A stretch of 41,941 bases of DNA, taken from Candidatus Omnitrophota bacterium. GTDB taxonomy: Bacteria > Omnitrophota > Gorgyraeia > VGKN01. Of the stretch, positions 20,691 through 41,558 are shown one piece after another. The position numbers and the translations under genes were made by a program. Numbering within the stretch: the first letter of the stretch is position 1; every line of letters starts with the position of its first letter. The notes beneath the pieces were generated by a model. The model ran no database searches, was not told the origin of the DNA, and saw only the letters and a list, made by a program, of their open reading frames with translations. The stretch spans positions 1-41,941 of the forward strand of contig JAGVOB010000163.1 in NCBI GenBank assembly GCA_020052955.1. The letters run 5' to 3'.

Positions 20691-21821
20691 TTAAGGTTGT
20701 TTAAAGAATTTCTTTATGCTCGCGATTACCCGCTCGACAACATTATCTGTCATATCGCTATATAAAGGCAGGGTAAGTATCTCCTGCCAGACTTTTTCCG
20801 TAACCGGCAAAGAAACCGCATAACGTTTAAAAAAAGGCTGAAGGTGGTTAGGTATATAGTGCACCCCAGAATCGATCCCTTCTTTCTTCAAAAACTCCAT
20901 TAAGCCGTCCCTGCCTTTTTTGACTTTTACGATATAATTAAAGAAGGCTGTATTTTTATAATCGCGCTTTAAGACTTCGATCCCTTTAATCCTTTTAAAT
21001 TCCTTATCGTATATTTTAACTATCTTCTTCTTTTTCTCCAGAAACTCAGCCATTTTTTTAAACTGGGTTAATCCTATAGCCGCATTTATATTGCTCATAT
21101 GGTATCTGAAACCCAAAGTAGTGACATTATAAAACCAATCCCTCTTGTGTTTATAGCGGCTCCAGGTATCTTTATCAATGCCTAGAATCCTTTTTTTATA
21201 AATCAGCTGGGCAAGTTCATCATCGGGCGTAGTGATTGCCCCGCCCTCTCCGCAAGTGATATTTTTAATGGGGTCAAAACTAAAACAGGTCAAATCTCCA
21301 AAAGACCCAATTTTCTTTCCTTTGTAACTTGAGCCAAAGGCATGAGCAGCATCTTCTACGACTTTCAGATTATTCTTCCTGGCTATATCTAAAATAGCGT
21401 CCATATCGCAGGGCAGACCGCAGTAGTGCACCGGCATAATGGCCTTTGTCCTGAGGCTGATCTTTCTTTTTATATCCTTAACATCCGCGTTTAAGGTATC
21501 GGCGGATACCTCACAGAATACCGGCCTGGCCCCGCAGAGCATAATTGCCTGAATTGAAGCGGCAAAGGTTAAAGAAGGGACAATAACCTCATCGCCGCGT
21601 TTTACCCCTATCGCATCCAGAGCCAGATGAAGCGCGGTAGTCCCGGTATTTACCGCGATAGCATTCTTTGCCCCGGTAAAACCTTTAATTACGTTCTCAA
21701 ATTCAAAGACCCATTTTCCCAAACCCAGCCATCCGGTTTTAAAGACTTCATTGATTTCCGATAGCTCATCCTGGCCTATCGACGGCCTGGATACCGGTAT
21801 TAATTTCTCATAGTTTGACAT
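20691..21821 (-). CDS. DegT/DnrJ/EryC1/StrS sugar aminotransferase
   Basis: Motifs GTTALHLAL, PVHY.G, EDAAHA and SFDPIKNITCGEGG (PLP Lys). Start moved to ATG 21821, which follows a GGTGA RBS-like sequence and avoids overlap with the upstream gene. Confidence 0.92.
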   Translation of the reverse strand: MSNYEKLIPVSRPSIGQDELSEINEVFKTGWLGLGKWVFEFENVIKGFTGAKNAIAVNTGTTALHLALDAIGVKRGDEVIVPSLTFAASIQAIMLCGARPVFCEVSADTLNADVKDIKRKISLRTKAIMPVHYCGLPCDMDAILDIARKNNLKVVEDAAHAFGSSYKGKKIGSFGDLTCFSFDPIKNITCGEGGAITTPDDELAQLIYKKRILGIDKDTWSRYKHKRDWFYNVTTLGFRYHMSNINAAIGLTQFKKMAEFLEKKKKIVKIYDKEFKRIKGIEVLKRDYKNTAFFNYIVKVKKGRDGLMEFLKKEGIDSGVHYIPNHLQPFFKRYAVSLPVTEKVWQEILTLPLYSDMTDNVVERVIASIKKFFKQP

Positions 21822-21825
21822 ATTT

Positions 21826-22616
21826 TCACCATTTTTTAGAATGCAAAATTGCAACGTATTGATAAGGATGAACTGACATTTCTTTGTGTATTATAAATCC
21901 CGCTTTTCTATACAACCTTCTTAATTCTCCTCTGGTCCGTCCCCACCCATGGAATTTACCACGATATTCTTTATTAACAGGCAATTTACCAAAAATCCTT
22001 CTGACTAGAGTTGATTCCTTAGTAGGCAATATACAAAACATTGTAATCAATTTCTTTATACTTATGTATCCACCATGAAAATCTATAATCTGTCTAACTC
22101 CCAGCTTCTTCAACTTACGAAAAGTGTCTATAAATAATACATCGTCCATTACATAACTAGCGCCAAAAAAAATTACCATATCGATACCCCCCCCGCAACA
22201 TCTAATAATCCTACTATATTGTCATTAAAGAAGTCAAAAACAACCGGGGTAATGCTCGGAAATAGAAATTTAGCTTTTTTAATCATATAAGCATCAAAAT
22301 CTGCCGCTATTATTCTTGTCTTTGGAGGAACGGCGCAAGATAGTAAATACTCAAGAACGCAATGCCCTGCCCCTAAAGATAAAATACTGTTCAGTTTATT
22401 ATCGTTTATATAACGAATTAAGAAAGCGAGAGAATTTAGTTTTTCCGGATTCCTGGAAAGATACCAGTATAGAAGCAACTCTTTATTCCTGAATATATCG
22501 CTAAATTCGTTTTCGATAACATAGGCGTGTTCCTCGGCGGTAAACTGCCTGCCATTATTATCAACGTCTTTAAGTAAGTCTAATTTGTGGCTTTTAGTAT
22601 AGAGTTTTATTTTCAT
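21826..22616 (-). pseudogene. Class I methyltransferase-like gene frameshifted at a G8 tract (possibly phase-variable)
   Basis: ORF 22173..22616 has ILSLGAG and AADFD. ORF 21826..22179 supplies the C-terminal half. G9 or G6 at 22187-22194 fuses them. Confidence 0.75.
22187..22194 (-). repeat. Poly-G8 homopolymer at the frameshift junction
   Basis: The plus strand reads tcgata-CCCCCCCC-gcaac, in an otherwise AT-rich gene. Confidence 0.85.
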
Positions 22617-22628
22617 CTTGTTTATTTT

Positions 22629-24104
22629 TTAACTCTTTAACGCTATAACGCATTTACGGATCATACTTACGGGGTCACTGAACATTTTTTCTGATATTTT
22701 TTTCGCCAAAAGGACCGGATGCTCCGCATAAAAAGCCTTCTGTAGGTACAACCACCCCGCTTCGAAAACTTTCTTTAACTCTTCACCGTTCCAATCCTGG
22801 GTTGAAATACTGTAGCTTCCGATATACAAATCGTCAAACGAATAATCTGGCTTGATATACCCCTTATCCAGGCATATTTTATACAATTCAGATCCGGGAT
22901 ACGGGGTAGCGATGGAAATAAACGGCTGGTACATCTTAAGGCTCCTGGCAAATTTAAATGTATCCCACATCTGCTTAATAGTCTCTCCGGGCATGCCCAG
23001 TATCAGGAAGATGCCGACATTAAGGCCTACCCCCCTAGCATATTCAACCAAAGGCTTTATTTTTTTCAGGTCCAACGGCTTTTTAATCACATTCTTTAAA
23101 ACATCGGGATTCCCGGATTCAATAGCCAGGTTTAACTGATAACACCCGGCATCCTTCATTTTTCTGATAAGCGGCTCATTCAGGGAAAAAGCAGCTACCC
23201 CATTAGGCGTATCCCACTCAAAACCTAATTTCTCCTCTACCATTAAATCAAAGATTCTCTCGGCCCGTCCGATATCCAAAGTTACATTGTCATCTTCAAA
23301 CATCAATTCCTTAATGCCGTAGTCATTCTTCAGTCGCTTCATCTCGGCGATTACATTCTCAGGGGAACGCCTGCGGTATCCTCTGCCCCAGACATGATGC
23401 GCAGTGCAGAAAGTACAGCCTGCAGGACAGCCACGGGAGGTAATAATGGGGGCGAAACACCTATGCCTTCTCTTGCCATGCGAAGACTCTAAGCCAAAAT
23501 ATTTCGCAAAATTTAGCAAATGCCAAGCAGGAAAAGGCAAAGTATCCAAGTTTTCTATGAACCTGGTTTTGGGTATTATTTTAACGCTGCCGTTTATGCG
23601 CATGGCAATGCCATCAATCTCATCTATACTTTTTTGCCCTTCCATGTATTCTATTAAATCTTTCGCCGTATTTTCCCCTTCGCCCAAAACGACAAAATCA
23701 ACGTTATTATCCTGCATAACCAACTCCGACATCACCGTAGGGTGCGCTCCGCCGGCAACTGTTATAATATTAGGGTTTACCTCCTTAACCAAGGCATAAA
23801 TGCTGTGGGCATTCTTTCTTTGCCTGGAAAATAGATTATTAACCCCTACAAGATCTGGGCCAAAATCGGATATCTGCCGTTTAACTTCCTCAGGCGTTAC
23901 CCCTATTTGGATGATTTCTGGGTTAATCTCTCTCCTGTTATTCCAACCCTCTATAAGGCAATCATAAATCTTGACCTCTATCCCCATCTTCTCAAGCACA
24001 GCCGCAATATAAGCCAACCCTAGAGGCGGTAAGGGATTTATATCTAAGTTATCCTTAAAAGTAAATGCAGGAGGATTAAATAACAAAACCTTTTTTATTT
24101 TCAT
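22629..24104 (-). CDS. Cobalamin-binding radical SAM protein
   Basis: Motifs PPLGLAYIAA, GGAHPT, GEGE, RGCPAGCTFC, FEDDN, IESG and PYPGSELY. The likely start is MKIKKV at 24104. Confidence 0.9.
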   Translation of the reverse strand: MKIKKVLLFNPPAFTFKDNLDINPLPPLGLAYIAAVLEKMGIEVKIYDCLIEGWNNRREINPEIIQIGVTPEEVKRQISDFGPDLVGVNNLFSRQRKNAHSIYALVKEVNPNIITVAGGAHPTVMSELVMQDNNVDFVVLGEGENTAKDLIEYMEGQKSIDEIDGIAMRINGSVKIIPKTRFIENLDTLPFPAWHLLNFAKYFGLESSHGKRRHRCFAPIITSRGCPAGCTFCTAHHVWGRGYRRRSPENVIAEMKRLKNDYGIKELMFEDDNVTLDIGRAERIFDLMVEEKLGFEWDTPNGVAAFSLNEPLIRKMKDAGCYQLNLAIESGNPDVLKNVIKKPLDLKKIKPLVEYARGVGLNVGIFLILGMPGETIKQMWDTFKFARSLKMYQPFISIATPYPGSELYKICLDKGYIKPDYSFDDLYIGSYSISTQDWNGEELKKVFEAGWLYLQKAFYAEHPVLLAKKISEKMFSDPVSMIRKCVIALKS

Positions 24105-24105
24105 T

Positions 24106-26166
24106 TTATTTCCCAAAATCAATATCGAATAAATCACTCAAAACAGGCCTATCACATACAAGATAGCTGGCCTTATCCCTGTAAGACGGGTAAACTTTAG
24201 CATTATGGGCAAAAAGCGCCAACTTCAAAAAATAATCCATAGCCCCAGTTTCAATTCCAGACTTGCTGCAATAATCTACCAGATGTCGGTTAATTAAATC
24301 TACCCCTCCTACCTTCTTTAAATATCCGCCGAAACCAATATCCCGAGTACGGCTTTTATAGTCCATAAGGAATGGATGAAAAATCAAAGTAGCCAAGTCA
24401 AAAGTCGGCAGCCCCTCCTGTTCAAAATGCTCGAAATCTACAACTCGAATCTGATTATATTCACCGCGCATTATATTAGAATAAAAATCAAAATCCCCGT
24501 GAATAGCGCACATTTTCAGCTTAAGCCCTGCAAATTCTGCCTTCCTTGTAAAATATTGACTCATCTTTCTTTTAAGTAAATCATCCTCGATACCCTGATC
24601 TTTTCCTTTTAAGCCAGCCAGATAATCACGGACAGAAAGTTCCCGGGTAAAGGTGCTACGCTGAAAATCTATCAGGAAATCAAGGCTCAATTTTACGGCC
24701 TGGTTAAATACATTACAATTGCGCCTGGAAACATTTCTAACCTTAAATGCCTGGCAATCAAGGTAATTTGTAACCAAGAAACTTATGCCGTCAATGCTAC
24801 CGTAATACAAAACAGATGGTATCTTATTCCTTAGTCCGATATCGGTTAAAAGTTTATTTACTGTCAAAAGGTTTTTAGATTCATCATCCAAAGCCTCCGC
24901 GCAACCCTTGCTGCGGGATATCTTACAAAAAAATAAAGGTTTACCCGCATGCCTATCATAAATCAGGCAGTTTAACGGTAGGCCATCACCAGACCTATTC
25001 TTTAATAAAATTGGCTCAATTCCGGCTTCCCCTGCTTTTAAAACACCCGCTTTTTTAAGCAAACTAATAATTCTGGGGTCCGAAATTTCTCCGGAGTCTT
25101 TTTTAGCGATAGCAATGAGGCTCGGAGAAAAGAATTTCATTATTGAACGCGGAACAATACTGAAAAAAATCTTCACCCGCTTGCCGCCGCAGGAAATAAT
25201 AAGTTTTTTAAAATTGGCGATTAAATCAAAACAGACAATCCTGTTGGGAGATATGTAATGAGGAAACGCGCCGTACATTTTTAGTCCGGCATACCCGGCC
25301 TTTTTTAATATATTTTTGCAGCCCATACTTGAATATATATAAGTCCTGTAACTATGCCCCTTCTTAAGCCTAGTTATTAAATCGGCTATAAACCGGGGCA
25401 GAAAAGGAACAAACCTGATATTTACATGGTCGTCAGGATAACCCATAAGGTATTGACAACCTATCCGGTTCTCTATCGCCAGAAAAAGATAGCCGCAAGG
25501 CTTAGTAACTCTTCTTAACTCTTTCAAAACCGCTACCTGCATAGAAAATGGATTCTTCGGGTATTTCTTGTTGCCTGACACCCTGTTGTTCCATTGCCTT
25601 TCCAGTATTACATCCTGTCTAAATGCCGCCCATTCCAATACTCCATTAAGTATTACTAAATCAAAATAATTATCAAGAAAAGGCAGCCTGTCCAGAGTCG
25701 CGGCCATAGGATATATATTATCAAAACCCATCTGCCGGGCGCGTATATTCAGAAAAGAAAGAGTTTCTACGGTTTTATCTACAGCAAATACCTGTCTGAC
25801 AAACTGGGCAACAGGAATTGTCAATCCTCCCCACATACTCCCGGCATCCAATACTCGCGCCTGGGCATCAATAGGCCAAATAAACTGAGCATCCGCCCTG
25901 TCAAAACTTTCAAAATGCTCCAGGTACTCTGGGATAACCGACTTCGCTGCTGACTGCCAATCATTCATTTCACGGGCCTTGTGATTCAATAGCTGCATTT
26001 TATCCCGGGAAACATTACACCAATATTCGTCATTTCTCCTAAAATCCGGGATATTGTCTATAACCGGATATTCTTTCCTACAGATAGCACAGGAAAAGGC
26101 GTTTTCCTTTTCCGTGATATCACTATGACAATCAGGACAGACTAACTTATGATTTTGAGAAAACAT
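24106..26166 (-). CDS. Trm112-like zinc ribbon::class I methyltransferase::APH/choline-kinase-like phosphotransferase fusion
   Basis: N-terminal LVCPDC...CAIC..YPV..IPDF, SAM motif VLDAGSMWGG with GVLEW and IENR, and C-terminal kinase motifs HGDF....N and VVDFE. Confidence 0.8.
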   Translation of the reverse strand: MFSQNHKLVCPDCHSDITEKENAFSCAICRKEYPVIDNIPDFRRNDEYWCNVSRDKMQLLNHKAREMNDWQSAAKSVIPEYLEHFESFDRADAQFIWPIDAQARVLDAGSMWGGLTIPVAQFVRQVFAVDKTVETLSFLNIRARQMGFDNIYPMAATLDRLPFLDNYFDLVILNGVLEWAAFRQDVILERQWNNRVSGNKKYPKNPFSMQVAVLKELRRVTKPCGYLFLAIENRIGCQYLMGYPDDHVNIRFVPFLPRFIADLITRLKKGHSYRTYIYSSMGCKNILKKAGYAGLKMYGAFPHYISPNRIVCFDLIANFKKLIISCGGKRVKIFFSIVPRSIMKFFSPSLIAIAKKDSGEISDPRIISLLKKAGVLKAGEAGIEPILLKNRSGDGLPLNCLIYDRHAGKPLFFCKISRSKGCAEALDDESKNLLTVNKLLTDIGLRNKIPSVLYYGSIDGISFLVTNYLDCQAFKVRNVSRRNCNVFNQAVKLSLDFLIDFQRSTFTRELSVRDYLAGLKGKDQGIEDDLLKRKMSQYFTRKAEFAGLKLKMCAIHGDFDFYSNIMRGEYNQIRVVDFEHFEQEGLPTFDLATLIFHPFLMDYKSRTRDIGFGGYLKKVGGVDLINRHLVDYCSKSGIETGAMDYFLKLALFAHNAKVYPSYRDKASYLVCDRPVLSDLFDIDFGK

Positions 26167-26169
26167 AGG

Positions 26170-27057
26170 TTAATTTTTGCCAATAGTAATATCATCTTTA
26201 TATAAATCACTTCGCGCATGCACTGTTATTTTAAGTCTGTTTAACTCCTCTTCCGCCCATCCGCCGCGGTATAAAATAAGAAGCCGCATAATAAAAATGT
26301 AGGCCTGCCAGAATAGAAAAGAAAGATAATATACCCATAAAATAGAAACCGAAAAAATAATTTCTATCACCAATAATAAACAAATTATGTCAATTGTACG
26401 CGCGTTATGCTCGAAGATAGCGTCGATTTTATTTTTTAAAAGTGTAAGCTTTGATTTACGGAGATCATTACCGATTACGTCCGCTGACTCCTGCTTATTG
26501 CCTGCGTAGGATGCGTTATATTCCTGCAGTTCATTCTTAGATAAGTAATGGTAAATAAACCGCTGTCTGGCTATGGAGTAGATATCCACCGCGAAGAAAA
26601 AAGGCGAGAGCGGACAAAGAATATAGAATAAATGGTGCACTGTGCGCCCTAAGTAAATCCCCATGCCAACCCAGAGTGCGGCCCATCCCAGATAAGCCCC
26701 ATAAGAGTCTAAAATATCTCCGGTGATTGACGTCTGTTTTAATTCCCGGGCTAGCGGCCCATCCGCCCAGTCCAGAAAAGGGCGCAGATAGAGTAACAGC
26801 ACTGCGGTTAAGACTGCCTTTTGAGAAGGAATAGCCAGAAAAACACCGGACAAAAGACCCATAAGAAGATACATAAATGTTACTGCGTTTGGCCTTATTT
26901 TTAGCTTTAGAAATAGCTGGATAAGCACAGCGCAGACGTTTACATAGACTACGGTTTTAATTTTTCGGTATGAGTATGGCTTCCAGAGGGCAATATAACT
27001 GTAATATTTATAGATATAGTCGTATTGATCCTGTTTTAATTCTCGTATGCTTTTCAT
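26170..27057 (-). CDS. CDP-alcohol phosphotransferase family membrane protein
   Basis: PNAVT, the signature DWADGPLAR-x8-G-x3-D, and hydrophobic helices. Confidence 0.85.
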   Translation of the reverse strand: MKSIRELKQDQYDYIYKYYSYIALWKPYSYRKIKTVVYVNVCAVLIQLFLKLKIRPNAVTFMYLLMGLLSGVFLAIPSQKAVLTAVLLLYLRPFLDWADGPLARELKQTSITGDILDSYGAYLGWAALWVGMGIYLGRTVHHLFYILCPLSPFFFAVDIYSIARQRFIYHYLSKNELQEYNASYAGNKQESADVIGNDLRKSKLTLLKNKIDAIFEHNARTIDIICLLLVIEIIFSVSILWVYYLSFLFWQAYIFIMRLLILYRGGWAEEELNRLKITVHARSDLYKDDITIGKN

Positions 27058-27063
27058 TTTTCG

Positions 27064-28314
27064 TTACCCTACCAGCAAAAGGCCTATACGGTAGAATTTA
27101 TTGGCCACGGGAAATTTCAGTTCTATGCCTAATTTTGCCACAGTCTTTACCACATCAACACCTACAGCTTCCAGCGGTATCCGCGCAAGATTGGGGAACC
27201 GGCACTTAGCGGCGCATTCATTGCATAATTTACAAGAACCTCCGATAAAAGACTGCGCGAAATGATAACTATGAGTAAACGCGAATTTCTCCAAATCCAA
27301 AAGAATGCGGTGTAATTTAACCGTAGATTCCTGTTTTATCTTTTTCCAATCTTCTCCTATTGCAGATTGTAATGCCACGATTAACCCTTTCTTGTAGCTT
27401 AAAAACATTTTTTGATAGTCAAGTTTCGGTATGTGCGGCGGACAGGTTAATTTTTTATTGTGATTAACGCAGTTATAGCAAAAGAGTTTCACCTTGGGAT
27501 CAAAAACGATATCCTTAGGATTAATAGGTAATACCTGTGTGGCCCCCAGGCTAAGAGCATGCTCCTTTAGTTTATCAAGCGCGCTAAAGATGTTGTTCAT
27601 TCTCTTAAACTCTTCAATACTATCAACCTCCATCCAGTTGAATCCATAAGTCGACACTGCGCGAAAAATATACTTAGGCAAAAGCTCATCAATGACATCT
27701 TCGTAAATAATCTTTCTCTTACCCATCTTCACCAGTTCACCCATTCTCTTTATAAAATCATTATTGCCTGCGCTTATCTTACCGATACCGATTGAACGGC
27801 CAAAAATCCCCTTGGCCGATAAAGGAACGTTTCTTCCTATGCGCACAATGCGGTTATGCGCAACTTTGACTTTATTCTCGCGCGGACTGACGTTATAATC
27901 AAAATCGACCAAAAGAAGGTTTTCCTTTGAACTCTTTGAATGGATAAGCTTCTCCAGTAATTCTTTTTCGCAGATAATATCACCGTCTATCAGGAGAAAA
28001 GGCTTAAGCAGGTATTTACGGCACAACCACAAAGAATATATTACGTTTGTAGTTAAAAAATCTTTATTCTCTATGCAAATTATCTCCCTAAACCATACTC
28101 TTTTTTTAATCTCCTTTAACTCCTTAAAGACCAGCTCTTTTTTATGCCCAACAACAATTATGATCTTTTCAATTTTTTTTAAGGATACCAGTTTTTCTAC
28201 CATATTTTCCAAGATAGTCTGATTATCTGCCAACCGGAAAAGGCACTGGTGCATCTGATTAGTATAAGGTAAAAGCTTCTTTTCCTTTCCCGCTACAAGT
28301 ATTATGGCATTCAT
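27064..28314 (-). CDS. LicC-like nucleotidyltransferase (degenerate motif) fused to a Cys-rich DUF2284-like metal-binding domain
   Basis: N-terminal MNAIILVAG, N...SL, DGD and WMEVDS. C-terminal CYNC...TCPP and GGSCKLCNEC...CRFP..AR..LEA.G.DV. Confidence 0.75.
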   Translation of the reverse strand: MNAIILVAGKEKKLLPYTNQMHQCLFRLADNQTILENMVEKLVSLKKIEKIIIVVGHKKELVFKELKEIKKRVWFREIICIENKDFLTTNVIYSLWLCRKYLLKPFLLIDGDIICEKELLEKLIHSKSSKENLLLVDFDYNVSPRENKVKVAHNRIVRIGRNVPLSAKGIFGRSIGIGKISAGNNDFIKRMGELVKMGKRKIIYEDVIDELLPKYIFRAVSTYGFNWMEVDSIEEFKRMNNIFSALDKLKEHALSLGATQVLPINPKDIVFDPKVKLFCYNCVNHNKKLTCPPHIPKLDYQKMFLSYKKGLIVALQSAIGEDWKKIKQESTVKLHRILLDLEKFAFTHSYHFAQSFIGGSCKLCNECAAKCRFPNLARIPLEAVGVDVVKTVAKLGIELKFPVANKFYRIGLLLVG

Positions 28315-28316
28315 AG

Positions 28317-29015
28317 CTATTTTTTTGTAATCTTCTTTAGGCTGACCAGGTCTTCGGGGGTATCAATCTCATGCCAGAAGAATGAATTAATGAGTATAGG
28401 CTTAACCCCGAACCCTTTGCCGGCCATTTCGCTTACCACATCTTCATACCAATCATTCCATCGTCCTTGCTCCAGCCATTTTTCTAACATCCTGCCGAAC
28501 AATTTAAGGTAGTTATAACTTATTTTTGTGATCCCTGAATATACCCCAAAAGTCAACTTATCAGGAATATCCATAGCCATTTTTATTATCCTGCCTCTAT
28601 TAAGCCTTACCCGATATCCGCCTTTCTCCCTCTGCTTTACCAATACCGAAAGATTAGCCTTGTCTTTAATTATCTTCTTTAATAACGCGGATTCCAGAAT
28701 TATATCGCTGTTCATAAAAATCAAATCGCCATTCCACTTGCTCATAGACAACCATACCGAGATAATACTGTTGGAATGGGCGTAAAAGGGGTTGAAAATA
28801 ACCTCAACCCCTTTAAATCTTCGGCAAAATAATTTCACCTTCTTGGCCTGAAACCCGCAAACTATCAGGATATCTTTTATGCCGCAGGAATTTAAAAGCC
28901 CTATCTGCCTTTCCAAGAGAGCCTTACCGCCCACCTTTACCATGCACTTTGGCAAGTTTTGTGTATATGGCTTCAAGCGTCTGCCCATACCCGCGGCAAG
29001 TATTATCGCCTTCAT
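28317..29015 (-). CDS. Phosphocholine cytidylyltransferase (LicC/PntC)-like nucleotidyltransferase
   Basis: Motifs MKAIILAAGMGRRL...PKC, N..Y...NS..S, NSD and WHEIDTPED. Confidence 0.88.
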   Translation of the reverse strand: MKAIILAAGMGRRLKPYTQNLPKCMVKVGGKALLERQIGLLNSCGIKDILIVCGFQAKKVKLFCRRFKGVEVIFNPFYAHSNSIISVWLSMSKWNGDLIFMNSDIILESALLKKIIKDKANLSVLVKQREKGGYRVRLNRGRIIKMAMDIPDKLTFGVYSGITKISYNYLKLFGRMLEKWLEQGRWNDWYEDVVSEMAGKGFGVKPILINSFFWHEIDTPEDLVSLKKITKK

Positions 29016-30073
29016 CGGGAAAAATATCCTTTCAATGCGCGTAATACGATCTCCATTTTCTCCTTAGGCCCGGTGGTAATCCGCAGATAATCCCGCAGGA
29101 ACGAATCCTCCGAAGGCAGGTAAATCAATACGCCTTTTGATTTTAAATAAGCATATACGTCTTTTCTCTTACCGTATACCTTTGCTAATACAAAATTAGC
29201 ATGCCCTTTAATAATTTCTAAACCCATCCTCTTTAAACCTGCCGCGAGATACTTCTTGCCTTCAGATTCAACTTTAACATAATTCTGGATATGCTTTGGA
29301 TGGTCAAGGATATATTCCGCGACTTTTAAAGCAAAGGTATGCGCCTCATACATCGGCCTAACTTTAAAGAAAGCCTCGATGGTATCCGGATGGCTTACCG
29401 CATATCCCAGACGTATGGATGCCGCACCTAAGGCCTTGGAAAATGTTCTCAGCACTATGAGGTTATCAAAACGTTGTGTCAATTTGAGGACAGTATGAGG
29501 ATAAAAATGAAAATAAGCTTCATCAATTAACACCGCTATACCCAACCGATTAGCCTTACGGATAATCTCCCTTAAAAAATCGAGCTCTAATACAGTGCCG
29601 GTCGGGCTATTAGGATTAGCCAGAGCGATAAGTTTAGTTCTTTTTGATACCGATACCGTCAATTTCTTCTTATCAACGCTGAAATCATTTTTAAAACCAA
29701 CTCCTATTTTTCTTGCTCCAAAAATCTTAATATATATATCATACATTGCATAGGTGGGATCCAGAACCACAACCGAATCCCCGGGTTCAACAAAAACCTC
29801 AAAGGCGCTTTTAATACCGCCATCGGAACCATTGGTAAGCAATATCCGTTCCTCGGGAACCCCCAGGTATCCGGAAAGTTTCTTGTAAAGGCGGCAAGGC
29901 TCAGGATACATTGAAAACTCCTCGGGCCTGATAGAGCTATATATGCAGGACAACGCTTTTTTATCCCAATCCAGCATACCTTCATTCTTATCCGCCCGAA
30001 CATAACCTATCCGCGATTCATTAACTCTGGGGAAACGATTTAATTTCCTTATTCTTTCTTTAATTTTTATCAT
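29012..30073 (-). CDS. HisC/CobD-like PLP enzyme (class I/II aminotransferase or phospho-amino-acid decarboxylase)
   Basis: Motifs DKNE, YP, TNGSD, NPNSPTG, DEAY, RTFSK...RLGY, ANF and RITTG. Confidence 0.87.
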   Translation of the reverse strand: MIKIKERIRKLNRFPRVNESRIGYVRADKNEGMLDWDKKALSCIYSSIRPEEFSMYPEPCRLYKKLSGYLGVPEERILLTNGSDGGIKSAFEVFVEPGDSVVVLDPTYAMYDIYIKIFGARKIGVGFKNDFSVDKKKLTVSVSKRTKLIALANPNSPTGTVLELDFLREIIRKANRLGIAVLIDEAYFHFYPHTVLKLTQRFDNLIVLRTFSKALGAASIRLGYAVSHPDTIEAFFKVRPMYEAHTFALKVAEYILDHPKHIQNYVKVESEGKKYLAAGLKRMGLEIIKGHANFVLAKVYGKRKDVYAYLKSKGVLIYLPSEDSFLRDYLRITTGPKEKMEIVLRALKGYFSR

Positions 30074-30083
30074 GTATTTAAGT

Positions 30084-31613
30084 TTATTTTAATTTATTTA
30101 AATGCAATTTAGCTTTTACAAGGGCAGCACAGTAGTTAACACACTCCTTTATCACCTTGTTAATCTTATCTCTCGAAAAGTATTTTCTATAAAATAGAAA
30201 TATTGTGCAACTCCATACCACTATCTGAGTAAACAAGGAAACAACCCCTACCAACCAGAAGCTCCTTACTTCGCGTATTAGATAGTTATGAAAGAAAGAA
30301 AAAGCTACGCTTAATACGCAAGGAATGCCCGCCAACTTTATAAAAACAAGCAATTCTTGTTTGTTCTCGAATATATAGCCTCGGACAAAATAGTAATTAA
30401 TCAGGGTGACTAAACCCTGAACCGAAACATTTATTAAGGCGATGGCTTTAATCCCGTATCCCATACGTATAGCAGTTAGATTAAAAATAACATTTAAGAT
30501 AAACCCGGCGATATAACTATTCAAGGAAAGAGCTTGTTTATTCACAGACGAACATTGCAAGATTAAAGCCGGGATTATAAGAAGGGCAATCATATAAAGA
30601 TTGCAGGAGAGTATAATAAATATTGCTATGCTGTCTATAAATTTTCTGGTCACTAATTCTGTCAGGAAATAAAAACAAATTTGTAAAAATGGTATCATTA
30701 TAGCGGCAGCTAACGCTAGATAAATAATTATCCGTTTGCTATCGTAGAATATATGCGCACGATGCTGGGCCTGGCCTGCCTTAGTCCAAAGGACAGGGGC
30801 AAGTACGTTTCCGAAATCCCTTAAGAATATCGAACCGAGGCTGGTATAGACTGCGGCATACGAATAGATGCCTAATACATTAAGGGGCAAAAGGCTAGCG
30901 ATGGTTGTTCGGTCGATAAGCTGATACCCCCAATAGACTAAGGCCAGTGAACTAAAGGTAATACCTACCTTAAATAACCGTTTAGTCTCTATCCAATCAA
31001 ATGAAAAACGGTAATTAATCCTCCCCTTTTTCCAGTAGTATTGGGCGGCAAGAAAAGCCCCTATAATAGGCGCAAGCAATACCGCATAAATTTTCAGCCA
31101 GTATATAAAAATTATAACTGCTGAAGTCGTAGCCACAGCCTGGATTAAATCGGATTTAGCCACCAGGTTAAACCTCTGGCGCACAAAATTCACCCCTCGC
31201 CAACATGCGGCTAAATGACTTATGGCAAAGGTGCATGCGGTCAAAAGAAAGCCTATTTTTAAAGTTCGGTCGGTAAAAAATAAGGAAGCGGCTGTGATAA
31301 CCGCAAACGGCAGCAAAGAATATAGCAAATCTGAAGTAAGAGAAATATTTTGCAACCGGATAGCCTCACTATCATTATTATTTCCTATTAGATGCGCCAT
31401 TTGCCTATTACTTGCTGATAATAACCCCGGATTAATCAGGGCAGCATATGTAGACCATAAACCTAAAAAACTTATAATACCGTAATCCTTGGGAGCCAGA
31501 ACCATAGCTATAATAATTGACTTAGGTATAGATAAAATATTAGAAATAATGCCTACCAGATTAAATTTTCCGGATTGCTTTAATATATCGACTACGCTAA
31601 TTTGCTTTGTCAT
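30084..31613 (-). CDS. wzx: Oligosaccharide flippase (Wzx/MOP superfamily)
   Basis: About 12-14 hydrophobic segments, with LAPKDYGI, IDR...LG.YS and G..A patterns. Confidence 0.75.
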   Translation of the reverse strand: MTKQISVVDILKQSGKFNLVGIISNILSIPKSIIIAMVLAPKDYGIISFLGLWSTYAALINPGLLSASNRQMAHLIGNNNDSEAIRLQNISLTSDLLYSLLPFAVITAASLFFTDRTLKIGFLLTACTFAISHLAACWRGVNFVRQRFNLVAKSDLIQAVATTSAVIIFIYWLKIYAVLLAPIIGAFLAAQYYWKKGRINYRFSFDWIETKRLFKVGITFSSLALVYWGYQLIDRTTIASLLPLNVLGIYSYAAVYTSLGSIFLRDFGNVLAPVLWTKAGQAQHRAHIFYDSKRIIIYLALAAAIMIPFLQICFYFLTELVTRKFIDSIAIFIILSCNLYMIALLIIPALILQCSSVNKQALSLNSYIAGFILNVIFNLTAIRMGYGIKAIALINVSVQGLVTLINYYFVRGYIFENKQELLVFIKLAGIPCVLSVAFSFFHNYLIREVRSFWLVGVVSLFTQIVVWSCTIFLFYRKYFSRDKINKVIKECVNYCAALVKAKLHLNKLK

Positions 31614-33519
31614 ACGATTTCATAAGCGCTCTTGTAATGTTATCTTTCGGATCGCCTTTATACACGCAATACTTCTCCATAAATTCTGTATTATTTAAAT
31701 CTTTTATCTCGCGCCTGCCCTTCATAAAATCCTCAACCTTATTCAGAAAATCCTCAATAGTATTACAAACTATCGCCCTCTTCTGCAACAGAAAGGCGGC
31801 CTCATCTGTAAGGCTTAAAAACATACTGTCGTTATATACCAAAATATGGCTCTTAGTAACAAGAGACTCATTCAAGGGGGTGCTTTGCTGCTCTATCAAA
31901 ACTAAGTCCGGATTATATATCTCCAGTGATTTCTTAAAAGAAATATTATCAATAACGGTAAACTTATCCGGATACCGGGCTTCAATATACTGTTTCAGAT
32001 AATGGTTATCGTAAGTACCGCAAAGAAATTTGAGCACTATTCTGCACTTAGGAAAACTTGCTAATTTATCAATTATCTTAGTTTGCAGCTTATAAATTGA
32101 CGGGATGGTGAACTCCGAAGCGAAAAATATATTTTCAAATGTTACCCCTATAAGGTATAAAATATTTACGTGTTTATTTTTATTTCCCTTAGAATTATAA
32201 CTTTTCGCGAAATCAGATATCGCAACAGAGCCAACCGGAATTACTACCGGTATTTTCTTTTCAGCCGGGTATCTTCTTTCAATAACATCGCGGCCGAAAC
32301 CGTATGAAAAATAATAATCACAATGATTCAGGTCTAAATCATAAAAAGCTTGGCCCATATAATTCGATCCATACACCCCTCCGTGCTGCATGCCGAACCG
32401 CGGCACATTATTCAGACGGAAAAACTCATTAACTATGCCGGCAGGATATCTATGGGGAGGATTACCCCAACAAACCATATCTATCGCAGTAGTATTATGC
32501 AACTCTTTAGCTGCTTTCCAATAATTCAGAATATTGGGCATTTTTCTTTCATAGAAACGCTTAATAAGAGGCACTAGATAAGAGTAAAGGTTTATAGCGT
32601 TATTATCGTTATTTTTCAGTATTTCATTATCAAAATTTAATTCATGCAAATTAAATTCGCCTTCATTTTTTTTATGTCCGTCTTTGTCTAGAAAGAAATC
32701 GCTAATGGGCTGCTTCTGCAAAAATTCCGGATTCATATTGTTATCTATATCCCAGAAAATTAAATTGAATTTCTCTTTAATCTCATTTGACGATGCAACA
32801 AAATCTAAATCGTAAAGCGGCTTCATAAAAAGGATATTCTTTTTACCCGCCGAGTATGGCAACATGGCTTCATGCCTTTTTTTAGCATAATGCCTAAGGG
32901 CCCGATAAAACACCTTAATTTTATTCATAAGATATTCAAATTTATAGGCATTTTTATGCCGACAAGGATTATTAGCCGTTAAATTAACTTTTAATGCTAG
33001 AATCGGCGGCTTTTTGTTATAATTCCAGGATTCCAACAATTTCCAGGTAATATTATCCGGGAAGAAAAAGGCGTTTTCTCTACTGTTGCCGCATAAGTCA
33101 ATCGGATTACCATTGTGCGGATAATTTAAACTAGCTATACTTTCGTGCTCTGTTATAGCTTCCAGGCCTTTTATCAGCCTAAAACTTCCAACTACAAACC
33201 TCTTAAATAAATAATTCATAGATACATAGAAAAAATTTATATCTTGTCTGCCAAATATTTGGCCATATACTTTTCTATTGTTCTCATCAAACCAGACAAT
33301 CGACTTATCCACCAACTCTGAAGCTTCCCGCGTAATCTTGTCTATTTCTTTATTCGGAAGATAATCAAATATACCTATGGCAGAAATACCTCTCTCCTTT
33401 TCAAGAAAAGAACGAATATAGGCGCTGTACGCAACAGGTATATATCTATGCTTAAGCTCAGCAAGAAAATAATCTGCATAACCAATGTTGTCTAAAAGAA
33501 GACAATCTTTTTTTTGCAT
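31597..33519 (-). CDS. Hypothetical surface-carbohydrate protein, putative GT-B type (nonulosonate?) transferase
   Basis: Soluble 640-aa protein with GMQHGGVYG, YFSYG and ST..E motifs. It lies between the NeuA/NeuB genes and the flippase. Confidence 0.5.
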   Translation of the reverse strand: MQKKDCLLLDNIGYADYFLAELKHRYIPVAYSAYIRSFLEKERGISAIGIFDYLPNKEIDKITREASELVDKSIVWFDENNRKVYGQIFGRQDINFFYVSMNYLFKRFVVGSFRLIKGLEAITEHESIASLNYPHNGNPIDLCGNSRENAFFFPDNITWKLLESWNYNKKPPILALKVNLTANNPCRHKNAYKFEYLMNKIKVFYRALRHYAKKRHEAMLPYSAGKKNILFMKPLYDLDFVASSNEIKEKFNLIFWDIDNNMNPEFLQKQPISDFFLDKDGHKKNEGEFNLHELNFDNEILKNNDNNAINLYSYLVPLIKRFYERKMPNILNYWKAAKELHNTTAIDMVCWGNPPHRYPAGIVNEFFRLNNVPRFGMQHGGVYGSNYMGQAFYDLDLNHCDYYFSYGFGRDVIERRYPAEKKIPVVIPVGSVAISDFAKSYNSKGNKNKHVNILYLIGVTFENIFFASEFTIPSIYKLQTKIIDKLASFPKCRIVLKFLCGTYDNHYLKQYIEARYPDKFTVIDNISFKKSLEIYNPDLVLIEQQSTPLNESLVTKSHILVYNDSMFLSLTDEAAFLLQKRAIVCNTIEDFLNKVEDFMKGRREIKDLNNTEFMEKYCVYKGDPKDNITRALMKSYDKAN

Positions 33520-34399: not shown

Positions 34400-35452
34400 T
34401 TAAACTGTTAGGAAAATACTTTTAATCTTTTTGATCTTCTGTATATCTTCTTCGCTGATATTTCTTATTATATCCCCCATCCCATCCGCTATTCCTAAAC
34501 ATCTTGTCGGTTGAATAATATTATCTACTATAACATCCCCGTGCCTACCCATCATTCCACCCGCAACAATGTTTATCCCTTCCACTGTCCTTCTGCCAAT
34601 GACCTCACTAAGCAACTTTTCGGTTGCTAGAATATTCGCAACAACACCCTCAAAACCCGCCCTTATGTCCAATCTTAATACGGTATGGCCATGCCTCTCT
34701 GCAAAGGCAATTGCATGTTTAAAAATACTGCCTTTACCTACATCGACAATTAATGCATTTTCATTTAACAGTTTTACCATCTCGGTATTAACCGCCGGCT
34801 CACCCGCTGTAGCCGCAATAAGAATGTCAGCGTTCTTCACAGCTTCCCGGTTTGATTTAAATGCCTTCACAATAGCTAGAGTCTGCGCAGGTTTAATTAA
34901 ATTTAAGGCTTTTGCAATAGCAAACGCTTTTTTGTAATCTCTCCTCGCAATATTAACCCAAGCACCTCTTTCAACCAAACGAAGAGCAATTTTGGAGCCT
35001 ATATTCCCTACGCCTATAATGGCTACTTTTTTCCCGCCTATCTTATATACAAATTGCGCCAGCAGCATATCAATAGCATCTACTGTAAGATCATTAGCTT
35101 TGAATGTAAAAACCTTGGATTTCTTAACTGTTTCTTTAACCAGGCGTTCTATATTACCGCCTATCCAATCTCCATATTCACTCTGGATTATCTTCTTCTC
35201 GGCATCAACTAGAATATATTCCACCTTGCCGTCTACATAACCGGCAATCTCTTTGGCTTGTTGCGGATTATATACAATCGCATTACCGGCAATGGCAAGC
35301 CTAGTTACCCTTAGGGGCGGGAAATATAAGCCTTCTCTATCGAGCTTTCTAGTATTGGCGATAGTAAACATTGTATGTTTGCCGCCAACAGCATGATGCT
35401 TTATATCGCGTAAGATTAAATCTATTTGCTTCTTAAGATCTTTTTTAGACAT
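34400..35452 (-). CDS. NAD(P)-binding domain protein (shikimate dehydrogenase/glutamyl-tRNA reductase-like Rossmann domain), function unknown
   Basis: KKVAIIGVGNIG, ADILIAAT and IVDVG. The N-terminal part was not recognised. Confidence 0.65.
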   Translation of the reverse strand: MSKKDLKKQIDLILRDIKHHAVGGKHTMFTIANTRKLDREGLYFPPLRVTRLAIAGNAIVYNPQQAKEIAGYVDGKVEYILVDAEKKIIQSEYGDWIGGNIERLVKETVKKSKVFTFKANDLTVDAIDMLLAQFVYKIGGKKVAIIGVGNIGSKIALRLVERGAWVNIARRDYKKAFAIAKALNLIKPAQTLAIVKAFKSNREAVKNADILIAATAGEPAVNTEMVKLLNENALIVDVGKGSIFKHAIAFAERHGHTVLRLDIRAGFEGVVANILATEKLLSEVIGRRTVEGINIVAGGMMGRHGDVIVDNIIQPTRCLGIADGMGDIIRNISEEDIQKIKKIKSIFLTV

Positions 35453-41304: not shown

Positions 41305-41558
41305 AGTATTTCTATCTCCATTTCGGCGTTGCGCAGCTTACGCCGCAAGGCGACCATTTCCGTTAAATGCCCCTTGCCTACAAACGCTTTATCGCCATCC
41401 TGGGCATACTTCCTTTTCCAATTATAAAGCACATTGGCGTGGATTCCCAAAGAGCGGGCTACTTCCGAGGCTTTTTGGCCTTCTTCGGTAATCATTTTGA
41501 CCGCTTGAACCTTAAACGCCTTGTCAAAACGTTTCATTTGGACCTTTTCCCCATCCAT
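41250..41558 (-). CDS. IS3 transposase OrfA (HTH)
   Basis: FK..AV......VARSLGI...LY.W and EILKKA. RBS AGGAGGT upstream of the ATG. Confidence 0.93.
   Translation of the reverse strand: MDGEKVQMKRFDKAFKVQAVKMITEEGQKASEVARSLGIHANVLYNWKRKYAQDGDKAFVGKGHLTEMVALRRKLRNAEMEIEILKKAVGIFSKPTENGSNL
41297..41304 (-). promoter_or_regulatory. -1 frameshift/slippage motif AAAAAAAG
   Basis: CTA AAA AAA GCA in orfA. The -1 frame reads KKSSRHIFKTDRERFEFI into orfB. Confidence 0.85.

Follow-up and report, generated by a model that had tools for sequence, protein, structure and literature searches.

A putative head-group cassette in an Omnitrophota glycan locus, with a HisC-like enzyme in the slot of the phosphonate-forming genes

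Introduction

LicC/PntC-type enzymes cytidylylate both P-choline and AEP. In the Pnt cassette, as laid out in excerpts of Rice et al. (2019; PMC6697681), a cytidylyltransferase of this type accompanies Ppm, Ppd and an AEP transaminase or alcohol dehydrogenase, and fusions of Ppm with a nucleotidyltransferase (NT) are common. Clusters of pepM, ppd, AEPT, an NTP transferase and a CDP-alcohol phosphatidyltransferase have already been depicted in Nostoc and Burkholderia (PMC5987646, in extract), and cassette versions with a CDP-alcohol phosphatidyltransferase were noted in Borgs (bioRxiv 10.1101/2024.11.05.622173). In Campylobacter jejuni, phospho-amino-alcohols are made by Cj1437, a transaminase converting DHAP to (S)-serinol-P, and Cj1436, a decarboxylase converting L-Ser-P to ethanolamine-P; a first-pass annotation of the DNA considered here had described both enzymes in terms that agree with the extract of the source (PMC11800397). 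Here we compare these systems with six genes from an uncultured bacterium that carry elements of several of them.

The locus and its genes

The window, i.e. the whole stretch of DNA that was analysed, covers 41,941 nt of contig JAGVOB010000163.1 from the uncultured Candidatus Omnitrophota bacterium GCA_020052955.1, whose genome is a draft of 232 contigs, 95.3% complete. Six tightly packed genes, in the order A-B-C-D-E-F, occupy positions 22629-30073 of the minus strand, within a sugar-coat (glycan) locus that includes many sugar pathways (NeuB, PseF-like, GMD, Fcl and DegT genes among them). The first-pass annotation had seen here a five-gene module followed by a B12 radical SAM gene; the ORF list places all six exactly where it had put them, and profile searches bore out its domain calls. 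The genes and their neighbours are:

31597..33519, minus strand: LIC12162-like, possibly TagF-like protein, 640 aa; weak TIGR04331 match (E 0.0016)
30084..31613, minus strand: Wzx-type flippase, directly upstream of A; PF13440, 35 bits
29012..30073, minus strand: A, 353 aa, HisC/CobD-like fold-type I PLP enzyme; Pfam Aminotran_1_2, 153 bits
28317..29015, minus strand: B, 232 aa, LicC/PntC-type (MobA-like) nucleotidyltransferase; PF12804 (NTP_transf_3) 47.7 bits, PF00483 38.3 bits
27064..28314, minus strand: C, 416 aa, NTP_transferase (PF00483, residues 3-135) and DUF2284 (PF10050, residues 264-414, 117 bits)
26170..27057, minus strand: D, 295 aa, divergent CDP-alcohol-phosphotransferase-like membrane protein; PF01066 (CDP-OH_P_transf) 43.1 bits, cut-off 22
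24106..26166, minus strand: E, 686 aa, Trm112-like Zn ribbon, class I methyltransferase and APH-fold kinase
22629..24137, minus strand: F, 502 aa, cobalamin-dependent radical SAM enzyme; PF02310 (B12-binding) and PF04055 (Radical_SAM)
20691..21854, minus strand: DegT-family sugar aminotransferase, downstream of E/F; PF01041, 402 bits

A and B overlap by 4 nt, the spacings B/C, C/D and D/E measure 2-6 nt, and E and F overlap by 32 nt, given the GTG start listed for F; the packing of the six genes is operon-like. The LIC12162-like protein has Atlas feature neighbours of which a minority carry PF27859 (LIC12162), PF04464 (Glyphos_transf) and PF05159, and it may, as a lead only, be another transferase besides D that uses a CDP-alcohol. 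The DegT-family protein is PseC- and ArnB-like, with scores under the cut-offs of those families. Its orthologues (62-68% identity) come after F in loci L015, L071, L078 and L169, and the gene is part of a conserved unit downstream of E/F.

Gene order shared with phosphonate loci

The D family is associated with phosphonate head groups. A search with the D alignment found 80 metagenome loci, and PepM or Ppd occurs in 28 of them; the share is 25 of 39 among loci of 5 kb or more and 19 of 27 among those of 10 kb or more, and the other eight of these 27 have neither gene within the retrieved stretch. By Pfam, the phosphonate genes are accompanied by an AEP-type aminotransferase or an Fe-ADH and by a B-like nucleotidyltransferase. 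In another Omnitrophota genome (G257, locus L172), a LIC12162-like protein, a flippase, PepM-NT, Ppd, Fe-ADH, NT and D follow one another, with F further on. This is the order of the window with PepM-NT/Ppd/Fe-ADH in the slot of A (+C); the LIC12162-like protein (47% identity) and the flippase (53%) hold equivalent positions, and F is 65% identical. Two further loci, in G212 (L169) and G069 (L173), run PepM-NT, Ppd, AT5, NT, D, E-type methyltransferase or E, and F.

LicB, LicD and PEP mutase, which the first-pass annotation had reported as missing, have no Pfam match among the 37 minus-strand ORFs of the window that were scanned, and the PEP mutase profile PF13714 has no match anywhere in the organism's own genome. 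With moderate confidence, we assign A-B-(C)-D to the phosphonyl-tailoring kind of head-group cassette; the HisC-like A would here replace the C-P-forming front end. Because a HisC-like enzyme takes the place of the phosphonate-forming genes, the cassette probably attaches a phosphate-linked amino-alcohol; most likely, A-B-(C)-D makes, CMP-activates and transfers a phospho-amino-alcohol.

Close relatives of A and D appear to share contigs, judged from equal contig sizes alone: homologues of A (60-84% identity) and of D (56-83%) both occur on contigs of 49847, 7782, 40548 and 31560 nt. The A version of the cassette is rare, since none of the 80 metagenome D loci has an A-like gene and a sample of 400 other genomes of the class yielded no A orthologue of more than 41% identity.

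E and F as a separate, putative tailoring unit

E combines a methyltransferase with a family-specific extension (residues ~45-358; class I methyltransferase Pfam match at 100-230) and an APH-fold small-molecule kinase (~360-686). The kinase had already been called in the first-pass annotation. E of the window has no Pfam APH match at E<=0.01, and the family bears the call out: PF01636 is found in 11 of 21 aligned members (Trm112p likewise in 11 of 21), and the kinase part has invariant Lys, Glu, HGD and DFEH motifs. The model of residues 360-686 (pLDDT 86; 85.6 for the full-length model) resembles APH(3')-Ia, MTR kinase, Rv3168 and ethanolamine kinase in Foldseek, with probability 1.0 and TM 0.4-0.58. 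F has its best NCBIfam match in the Sden_1168 P-methyltransferase family (NF038361, 314 bits, under the cut-off of 575). It is probably a methylase that travels with E, and its orthologues (47-66% identity) come after E whether or not a locus has phosphonate genes.

E belongs to a widespread family of ~700 aa. Of the 20 genome loci with E, 17 (two of them on contigs of <2.2 kb) contain neither D nor, next to E, a B/C-type nucleotidyltransferase. Downstream of it there is usually a ~300-aa methyltransferase or F, followed by DegT, glucose-1-P cytidylyltransferase and CDP-glucose 4,6-dehydratase. E and F belong to a separate, widespread, putative tailoring unit, usually found alongside CDP-amino-sugar genes and not specific to the head group.

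It is unlikely that all five genes and F form one pathway, in which a LicA-like kinase and a phosphoethanolamine-N-methyltransferase-like domain of E would produce a choline-like head group for activation by B and transfer by D. Such a pathway would suit the D-E gap of just 3 nt, the presence of E or an E-type methyltransferase as the next gene after D in 20 of the 56 D loci with at least 600 nt of room, and the fold family of the E kinase, which includes choline and ethanolamine kinases. Phosphoethanolamine N-methyltransferases are also among the structural neighbours of the E methyltransferase domain, but dozens of class I methyltransferases unrelated to them are no less similar (Z 15.9-17.7 throughout, with ~17 for generic ones). 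Besides the predominance of E loci next to CDP-glucose-derived amino-sugar genes, the methyltransferases by D mostly lack a kinase domain, an A-like gene lies near E in just one of the 20 genome loci (L028, 35% identity, ~6 kb away), and the kinase would be superfluous if the product of A is already phosphorylated. On the 49847-nt contig, E is 55% identical to its counterpart whereas A and D are 83-84% identical, which suggests separate histories. The neighbourhood survey gives no support to the earlier claims that the five genes are one conserved module and that E is a LicA-like kinase and N-methylase of the amino-alcohol. A self-contained route that makes, methylates, activates and transfers had been envisaged; its making, activating and transferring by A-B-(C)-D survive as a prediction, while the part given to the methyltransferase and kinase of E lacks such support.

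The predicted transferase D

D, the proposed head-group transferase, has hydrophobic segments at ~32-91 and 217-263 and carries the motif D96xxD99G100xxA103R104x8G113xxxD117xxxA121. The canonical fourth Asp of the CDP-alcohol phosphotransferase motif is missing in all 19 aligned family members, and therefore the chemistry or the acceptor of D may differ from the textbook reaction. The same alignment has additional invariant residues (T221, D223 and E232), and the family has a block of its own, FEHNARTVD.

Characterised PF01066 members are mostly phospholipid makers, and phosphonolipids were proposed for the Nostoc pepM-ppd-AEPT-NTPT-CDP-alcohol phosphatidyltransferase clusters in the extract of PMC5987646. 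In line with this the cassette could make a membrane lipid head group, as in a Kennedy-type phospholipid, with diacylglycerol or a similar lipid as acceptor of D, but we regard this as improbable. Here and in relatives, D lies inside a glycan locus, with the Wzx flippase on one side and sugar-modifying genes on the other; it is set apart from the lipid synthases by the FEHNARTVD block and by its lack of the fourth Asp; and non-lipid acceptors are also used in the family, to go by the name of IPCT/DIPPS.

The HisC-like enzyme A and the nucleotidyltransferases B and C

A scores 254 bits against TIGR01141 (hisC), under the cut-off of 276.55, and 147 bits against TIGR01140 (CobD), under the cut-off of 290.55; its closest PDB relatives are HisC chains (E 1e-30). 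HisC and CobD act on phosphate esters, and Cj1436 and Cj1437, according to the first-pass annotation, are HisC/CobD-type PLP enzymes too. In an alignment with E. coli HisC, the Schiff-base Lys and the PLP residues are conserved in A, as are R335, a phosphate-binding arginine of HisC, and D85 and Y110, which hold the imidazole in that enzyme. A differs from E. coli HisC, and likewise from the HisC of its own genome, at positions 86 (G in A), 157 (S) and 322 (Y). Judged by sequence, A is a paralogue and not the housekeeping hisC, because a separate gene (C80:9279-10343) passes the TIGR01141 cut-off with 369 bits; hisD is also present. The possibility, raised earlier, that A is the only hisC of the genome is thereby settled in the negative. 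A may nevertheless have true histidinol-phosphate activity, because its score is near the hisC cut-off and D85 and Y110 are kept.

B carries the N-terminal signature AGMGRRL...PK and weakly matches MurU and the IPCT half of IPCT/DIPPS. It is the proposed CTP:phospho-amino-alcohol cytidylyltransferase, and many loci have a B-like gene directly upstream of D, with the phosphonate genes on its other side. C is 30% identical to B over 247 residues, with AGKEKKL as its Gly-rich loop versus AGMGRRL in B; on sequence grounds, it is a paralogue of B fused to a Cys-rich, metal-binding DUF2284 domain, which accounts for the Cys-rich part of the second LicC-like fusion first described. Full-length fusions of this type are rare: a search of 1.84 billion representatives gave 3858 matches, among them five representative clusters (P0263-P0267) of the C type.

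A might also be chemically unrelated to its neighbours and merely sit in the operon, as an aminotransferase acting on a sugar, a nonulosonic acid or an amino acid, while B and C activate a sugar-1-phosphate in the manner of GlmU, MurU or AglF and D uses another CDP-linked substrate. We give this a low probability. The many sugar pathways of the locus and the A-like genes (35-41% identity) in glycan loci without D are consistent with it, and the best NCBIfam matches of B and C are sugar-1-phosphate nucleotidyltransferases, but all of these are far under their cut-offs (best 82.6 versus 292 bits). The position of B-like genes in phosphonate loci, the A/B overlap, and the kinship of A with HisC and CobD as nearest profile relatives, with R335 kept, argue against it, and so do four A homologues (~45% identity) that are proteins of ~610 aa fused to cytidylyltransferase domains (PF02348 or PF12804). 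Other A homologues, at ~40% identity, are found in glycan loci close to cytidylyltransferases. Finally, an ordinary phosphonate cassette with PepM and Ppd in an unassembled part of the genome would fit the draft assembly and the phosphonate linkage of most D relatives, but it has very little probability, as PF13714 finds no match and as PepM and Ppd of the relatives stand directly beside the nucleotidyltransferase and D, a slot that A fills here on an uninterrupted 42-kb contig.

Proposed pathway

What the cassette A-B-(C)-D makes, which acceptor it serves and what C, E and F do are all inferred, and the steps would run as follows. A would convert a phosphorylated central metabolite into a phospho-amino-alcohol, most likely DHAP with Glu into serinol phosphate (a HisC-type transamination) or L-serine phosphate into ethanolamine phosphate (a decarboxylation); threonine phosphate to aminopropanol phosphate, or histidinol phosphate itself, may be other options. 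With CTP as the source of CMP, B would then turn this product into a CDP-amino-alcohol, from which D would pass the phospho-amino-alcohol on to a hydroxyl group and release CMP; the acceptor is likely a lipid-linked glycan of the surrounding locus, before it is flipped by the adjacent Wzx protein. E and F could act as a tailoring pair by methylation, phosphorylation and radical methylation. If this is true, the cassette would yield a decoration with a zwitterionic phosphodiester, analogous to 2-aminoethylphosphonate but with a phosphate ester in place of the C-P bond.

Comparison with known systems

E shares its domain order, methyltransferase then kinase, with WbdD of E. coli O9a (PDB 4azs, 4azt), which makes the O-antigen methyl phosphate cap and is the sole listed structure aligned across both E domains (627 columns, Foldseek E 2e-8, TM 0.20/0.29); a sequence comparison of E with the WbdD chains found no similarity at E<=1. 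Unlike WbdD, the isolated kinase domain of E resembles APH-type small-molecule kinases, and whereas WbdD acts in an ABC-transporter-dependent pathway, E loci encode Wzx-type flippases. IPCT/DIPPS (NF041135; inositol-1-phosphate cytidylyltransferase/CDP-inositol transferase) unites the activity pair that two genes would provide in the window, B matching the IPCT half with 67.9 bits and D the DIPPS half with 22.6 (cut-off 580). It sets a precedent for transfer to a non-lipid acceptor but differs in substrate and genomic context, and D lacks the fourth Asp.

The Lic route (LicA choline kinase, LicC, LicD) and the eukaryotic Kennedy pathway likewise use a LicC-type enzyme for a CDP-activated phospho-alcohol and phosphodiester transfer, and an APH-fold kinase is encoded nearby here. 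There the head group is salvaged, whereas in the window it would be made de novo by a PLP enzyme; the predicted transferase is CDP-OH_P_transf-like rather than LicD, and the kinase forms a fusion with a methyltransferase and also occurs outside such cassettes. The C. jejuni system is likened by description: in the extract of PMC11800397, a glycan locus has its own enzyme for making a phospho-amino-alcohol from a central metabolite. In contrast to the window, its product is amide-linked to glucuronate by an ATP-dependent ligase and then dephosphorylated, in a route with neither cytidylyltransferase nor CDP-alcohol transferase.

The Pnt cassettes, like the window, have a B-type nucleotidyltransferase followed by a D-family transferase, with members orthologous to D (29-48% identity) and F (47-66%), and are flanked by a LIC12162-like protein, a Wzx flippase, E or an E-type methyltransferase, F and DegT. 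The downstream transferases named in the excerpts of PMC6697681 are LicD-like phosphotransferases and not of the D family. In place of PEP mutase, Ppd, AEP transaminase and Fe-ADH, the window has the HisC-like A and the NT::DUF2284 fusion C, and its predicted product is a phosphate ester rather than a phosphonate.

Gene organisation and the surrounding glycan locus

The whole window is a single long glycan locus on the minus strand, in which six closely spaced genes, A to F, form the subject of this analysis. The ORFs of A to E coincide exactly with the coordinates proposed in the first-pass annotation, and its domain calls hold in Pfam and NCBIfam searches, that of an APH-like kinase in E by way of its family, motifs and model.

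Features of the glycan locus
40402-41558, minus strand: two transposase ORFs (HTH_Tnp_1 ORF and rve integrase-core ORF), at the high-coordinate end of the locus
35445-37820, minus strand: 791-aa NeuB fusion (FAD amine-oxidase/UDP-galactopyranose-mutase-like part, NeuB-type nonulosonate synthase, SAF)
31597-33519, minus strand: 640-aa LIC12162-like protein
29012-30073, minus strand: A, HisC/CobD-like PLP enzyme
28317-29015, minus strand: B, putative LicC-type nucleotidyltransferase
27064-28314, minus strand: C, paralogue of B fused to DUF2284
26170-27057, minus strand: D, CDP-alcohol-phosphotransferase-like membrane protein
24106-26166, minus strand: E, Zn-ribbon, methyltransferase and predicted APH-fold kinase
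22629-24137, minus strand: F, B12 radical SAM enzyme, directly after E
21826-22616, minus strand: G and H, small ORFs of 147 and 117 aa in different frames, overlapping by 7 nt, between F and a DegT aminotransferase gene
5991-7280, minus strand: second, stand-alone FAD oxidase
1060-1887, minus strand: B12-binding ORF, 275 aa
363-980, minus strand: radical SAM C-terminal ORF, 205 aa
Elsewhere in the locus, minus strand: Wzx-type flippase; GT2, GT4 and two PMT_2 glycosyltransferases; GDP-mannose dehydratase (over its cut-off); GDP-fucose synthase-like gene (492.8 bits, cut-off 500); PseF-like cytidylyltransferase; asparagine-synthase-type amidotransferase; several methyltransferases and further B12 radical SAM genes

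Genes A to F are separated by gaps of 2-6 nt, apart from a 4-nt overlap between A and B and one of 32 nt between the end of E and the listed GTG start of F. Alignments of F with its homologues open at about residue 9-18, and its true start may lie further downstream than this GTG. The transposase ORFs are read as an IS3-type element, whose position at the end of the glycan locus hints that the latter is mobile or recently rearranged. The ORFs at 1060-1887 and 363-980 look like a single B12 radical SAM gene in two pieces, and G and H look like one methyltransferase cut by a frameshift or an assembly error. G contains the SAM-binding-like motifs LSLGAGHC and IIAADFD. By Atlas features it groups with fragments of methyltransferases, a generic and weak match (score 0.95, 131 shared features). 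The idea that G and H represent a disrupted version of the ~300-aa methyltransferase located 3' of E elsewhere was dropped, the best tblastn match reaching only E 0.76. The LIC12162-like protein has a weak match to the family of that name and zero Pfam matches. Its Atlas neighbour clusters contain TagF-type glycerophosphotransferase or capsule-synthesis domains in 15-35% of members, and proteins clustering with it occur in six of 23 sequences (the window, the 20 loci with E described below, L044 and L048), 5' of the flippase wherever E is present. It may be a second user of CDP-linked donors and is a weaker candidate than D for a CDP-alcohol-using transferase.

An atypical putative transferase family associated with phosphonate genes

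Judging from its PF01066 score of 43.1 bits (cut-off 22) and its hydrophobic segments at about 32-91 and 217-263, D appears to be a polytopic membrane protein of the CDP-alcohol phosphotransferase family. The complete signature of these enzymes is D(x)2DG(x)2AR(x)8G(x)3D(x)3D. In D it takes the form DxxDGxxARx8GxxxDxxxA, with D96, D99, G100, A103, R104, G113 and D117 kept and the fourth aspartate replaced by Ala121; all 19 aligned members have Ala or Ser at this position, so that D and its relatives depart from the complete signature. They share an additional invariant block around FEHNARTVD. The family is small, with 20 matches in a search of 5.8 billion proteins, and a full-length orthologue is found in only five of the 401 genomes of the phylum sample, the window's own genome included.

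The neighbours of D tie the family to phosphonates. Searching metagenome contigs with the D alignment yielded 80 loci, and the subsequent tblastn survey found PEP mutase (PepM) or phosphonopyruvate decarboxylase (Ppd) in 28 of them, in 25 of the 39 loci of at least 5 kb and in 19 of the 27 of at least 10 kb. An A-like gene was found in none of the 80. An E-type methyltransferase lies directly 3' of D in 20 of the 56 loci with room for one, and full-length E is present in six loci. Pfam searches around two genomic D genes (L013 and L015) identified a PEP mutase::nucleotidyltransferase fusion, a two-domain TPP enzyme, read as Ppd, and an Fe-ADH or class V aminotransferase. Genome G257 has the order LIC12162-like protein, flippase, PepM-nucleotidyltransferase, Ppd, Fe-ADH, nucleotidyltransferase and D, with F further on; this is the order of the window, with a phosphonate front end in the slot of A (and C). 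Among the three genes in the E slot of this locus (L172), Pfam searches found no E homologue, a GNAT domain in one gene and nothing above threshold in the other two, which had sub-threshold matches. In G212 (L169) the order is PepM-nucleotidyltransferase, Ppd, aminotransferase (AT5), nucleotidyltransferase, D, E-type methyltransferase, F and DegT. The same front end recurs in G069, followed by full-length E and F, with DegT absent from the stretch read, and a 2.8-kb contig of G008 carries nothing beyond part of a nucleotidyltransferase, D and an E-type methyltransferase. L013 and the G069 locus (L173, on G069:C4) are probably one contig: their PepM-nucleotidyltransferase and AT5 are 100% identical, the gene order is equal and both measure 90197 nt. 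The sequence is labelled 'uncultured Planctomycetia bacterium' and was yet drawn in the phylum sample of the window, a mismatch of taxonomic labels.

A front end without PEP mutase

The absence of PEP mutase from the window, asserted in the first-pass annotation, was borne out among the window ORFs scanned and extends to the whole genome, a 2.38-Mb draft of 232 contigs that is 95.3% complete and has zero matches to PF13714. Run as a control on 14 reference genomes, the same search recovered the family in 11. A, together with C, stands where the phosphonate genes are found in related loci.

A is HisC-like and probably distinct from the housekeeping enzyme. It scores 254.1 bits on TIGR01141 (HisC), under the equivalog cut-off of 276.55, which another gene of the same genome (C80:9279-10343) exceeds with 369.4 bits. 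A is not the only hisC, as it would have to be for the refutation named at the outset. hisD is also present. The score of A on TIGR01140 (CobD) is 147.1 bits, under the cut-off of 290.55, and its PDB matches to CobD chains (E 2e-11 to 9e-14) are weaker than those to HisC chains (1e-30). Compared with the E. coli HisC residues that we take to form the active site, with presumed roles as PLP-binding residues and phosphate arginine, A keeps Y55, D85, Y110, D184, Y187, S213, K214, R222 and R335 and replaces E86 by G, N157 by S and R322 by Y, assignments that depend on the alignment. These three substitutions are shared across the A family, and the HisC of the same genome has E, N and R at the corresponding positions.

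The closest homologues of A (60-84% identity) are on contigs of 49847, 7782, 40548 and 31560 nt, and the closest D homologues (56-83% identity) are listed on contigs of exactly these sizes; the 49847-nt contig also has an E homologue (55% identity). From these equal sizes, homologues of A, D and E seem to occur together on the same contigs (49847 nt and others). Four further homologues (~45% identity) are ~610-aa fusions of the PLP domain with cytidylyltransferase domains. Those at 35-41% identity, in G203, G207 and L028, all lie in glycan loci, with a CTP_transf_3-like (cytidylyltransferase) match about 1.5 kb away in G203 and a CMP-NeuAc-synthetase-like cluster gene about 2 kb away in L028. 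The family and the order of this genome each comprise just three others, in which neither A nor D turned up, and the 400 other genomes of the class sample yielded relatives of A at no more than 40-41% identity.

By profile and loop, B is a probable LicC/PntC-type, MobA-like nucleotidyltransferase: it scores 47.7 bits on PF12804 against a Pfam cut-off of 27, and its N-terminal Gly-rich G-x-G-x-R loop and downstream lysine are present (AAGMGRRLKPYTQNLPK). Its paralogue C (30% identity) matches PF00483 alone (36.1 bits), has an altered Gly-rich loop, AGKEKKL, and is fused to DUF2284, an arrangement that is rare (five representative clusters). In the literature searched, DUF2284 came up in just two papers.

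Predicted tailoring enzymes E and F

The E family, of about 700 aa, is well conserved, with 196 matches at E<=1e-3 among 8000 candidates scored and full-length identities to the window protein of 38-55%. According to source names and record titles its hosts are Omnitrophota, Chloroflexota, CPR groups, Planctomycetes, Desulfobacterales, Gammaproteobacteria and Methanosarcinaceae. No Pfam APH match reaches E<=0.01 in the window protein, and PF01636 (APH) is matched by 11 of 21 aligned family members (best E 9.2e-10). In the family alignment the kinase motif residues K415, E429, G557, D558 and D577 are invariant, and H556 and N564 nearly so. A model of residues 360-686 (pLDDT 86) matches APH(3')-Ia, MTR kinase, Rv3168 and macrolide and ethanolamine kinases, the first three with a probability of 1.0. 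Profile, motifs and predicted fold thus point to an APH/choline-kinase-like small-molecule kinase. A second comparison (VIA), of the whole E model, returned methyltransferase-domain matches only (Z 15.9-17.7), all of them generic, so that neither phosphoethanolamine methyltransferases nor WbdD can be singled out.

Neighbours were counted in 20 genome loci with near full-length E (L009-L028).

Neighbours of E in 20 genome loci
F directly 3' of E: 7/20 (L009, L010, L011, L013, L015, L021, L027)
Methyltransferase of ~250-310 aa directly 3' of E: 9/20 (L012, L014, L019, L022-L026, L028)
DegT aminotransferase within 8 kb 3' of E: 12/20
256-aa nucleotidyltransferase near E: 8/20
D directly 5' of E: 3/20 (L010, L013, L015), with a B/C-type nucleotidyltransferase beside D only in L010 and L013
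A-like gene near E: 1/20 (L028, 35% identity, ~6 kb away)

The usual neighbours in these loci are glucose-1-phosphate cytidylyltransferase, CDP-glucose 4,6-dehydratase, cupin and DegT genes. In L011 the 256-aa nucleotidyltransferase is a glucose-1-phosphate cytidylyltransferase (381 bits, over cut-off) adjoining a CDP-glucose 4,6-dehydratase (499 bits, over cut-off). These counts, together with the L011 assignments, indicate that E and F normally accompany a CDP-amino-dideoxy-sugar pathway, and the neighbourhood has the appearance of a CDP-amino-sugar tailoring unit that is as yet uncharacterised. This argues against E as a dedicated kinase and N-methylase of the amino-alcohol, as first proposed. 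F itself exceeds the cut-offs of PF02310 and PF04055, and its best NCBIfam match is NF038361 (Sden_1168 family P-methyltransferase; 314.3 bits, under the cut-off of 575). E and F are predicted to be tailoring enzymes, separate from the proposed head-group cassette A-D. Of the original interpretation, a PepM-free CDP-amino-alcohol route gains from the comparative evidence; the self-contained, conserved five-gene module is not supported, E occurring mostly without D (17 of 20 loci) and hardly ever near an A-like gene.

Proposed pathway and its significance

A would first produce a phospho-amino-alcohol, most likely by HisC-type transamination of DHAP to serinol-P or by decarboxylation of phosphoserine to ethanolamine-P, the latter being the closest isostere of 2-aminoethylphosphonate. 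Both conversions are described for C. jejuni enzymes in PMC11800397. B would then turn the product into its CDP conjugate, and D would transfer the head group with loss of CMP, the acceptor probably being a lipid-linked glycan ahead of the Wzx flippase. Put together, the steps would amount to a salvage-independent bacterial 'Kennedy-like' glycan route, in which a HisC-derived PLP enzyme makes serinol-P or ethanolamine-P from DHAP or phosphoserine, a PntC/LicC-type enzyme forms the CDP-amino-alcohol and an atypical transferase lacking the fourth aspartate places it on a lipid-linked glycan. Its origin would lie in a phosphonate-tailoring cassette whose front end was exchanged, a single transferase family serving C-P or C-O-P head groups, and the product may be methylated by E and F. 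We advance this composite reading tentatively, with the balance leaning somewhat against it as a whole.

The A-B-D arrangement with a HisC-like enzyme was not found in the literature searched, and the supplementary neighbourhood tables of PMC6697681 and PMC8942020 may bear on the transferase family. No paper was found on a de novo bacterial source of CDP-amino-alcohols, nor on CDP-serinol, CDP-aminopropanol, CDP-histidinol or bacterial CDP-ethanolamine. Clusters of pepM, nucleotidyltransferase and CDP-alcohol transferase genes have been noticed before, in a Nostoc paper (PMC5987646) and a Borg preprint (bioRxiv 10.1101/2024.11.05.622173). Rice et al. 2019 (PMC6697681) treat PntC as well as Ppm-nucleotidyltransferase fusions, and the transferases they name are LicD-like; the main text of Li and Horsman 2022 does not mention CDP-alcohol transferases, and the six transferase and methyltransferase terms looked for in Acker et al. 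(PMC8931226) are all absent.

If correct, the proposal would provide a concrete example of bacteria switching their surface decoration between a phosphonate (2-aminoethyl- or 2-hydroxyethylphosphonate) and a phosphate-ester look-alike by exchanging the small-molecule-making enzymes alone, with the activating enzyme and transferase kept, and it would point to a de novo bacterial source of CDP-amino-alcohols. It would single out two uncharacterised families, D and the ~700-aa E, both of them common where uncultured bacteria and archaea encode glycans. The D family, without its fourth aspartate, would become a candidate for the phosphonate transferase in the later, 'enigmatic' stages of phosphonyl tailoring.

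Comparison with known systems

E has its domain order in common with WbdD, an O-antigen terminator and the only listed structure aligned across both domains. The Foldseek alignment covers 627 columns at E 2e-8, but the TM scores are just 0.20/0.29. PDB sequence searches with E alone and with the E family profile matched methyltransferases and Zn-ribbons only, with no kinase and, at E<=1, no WbdD. E also differs from WbdD in that its kinase is APH-like and its loci encode Wzx flippases.
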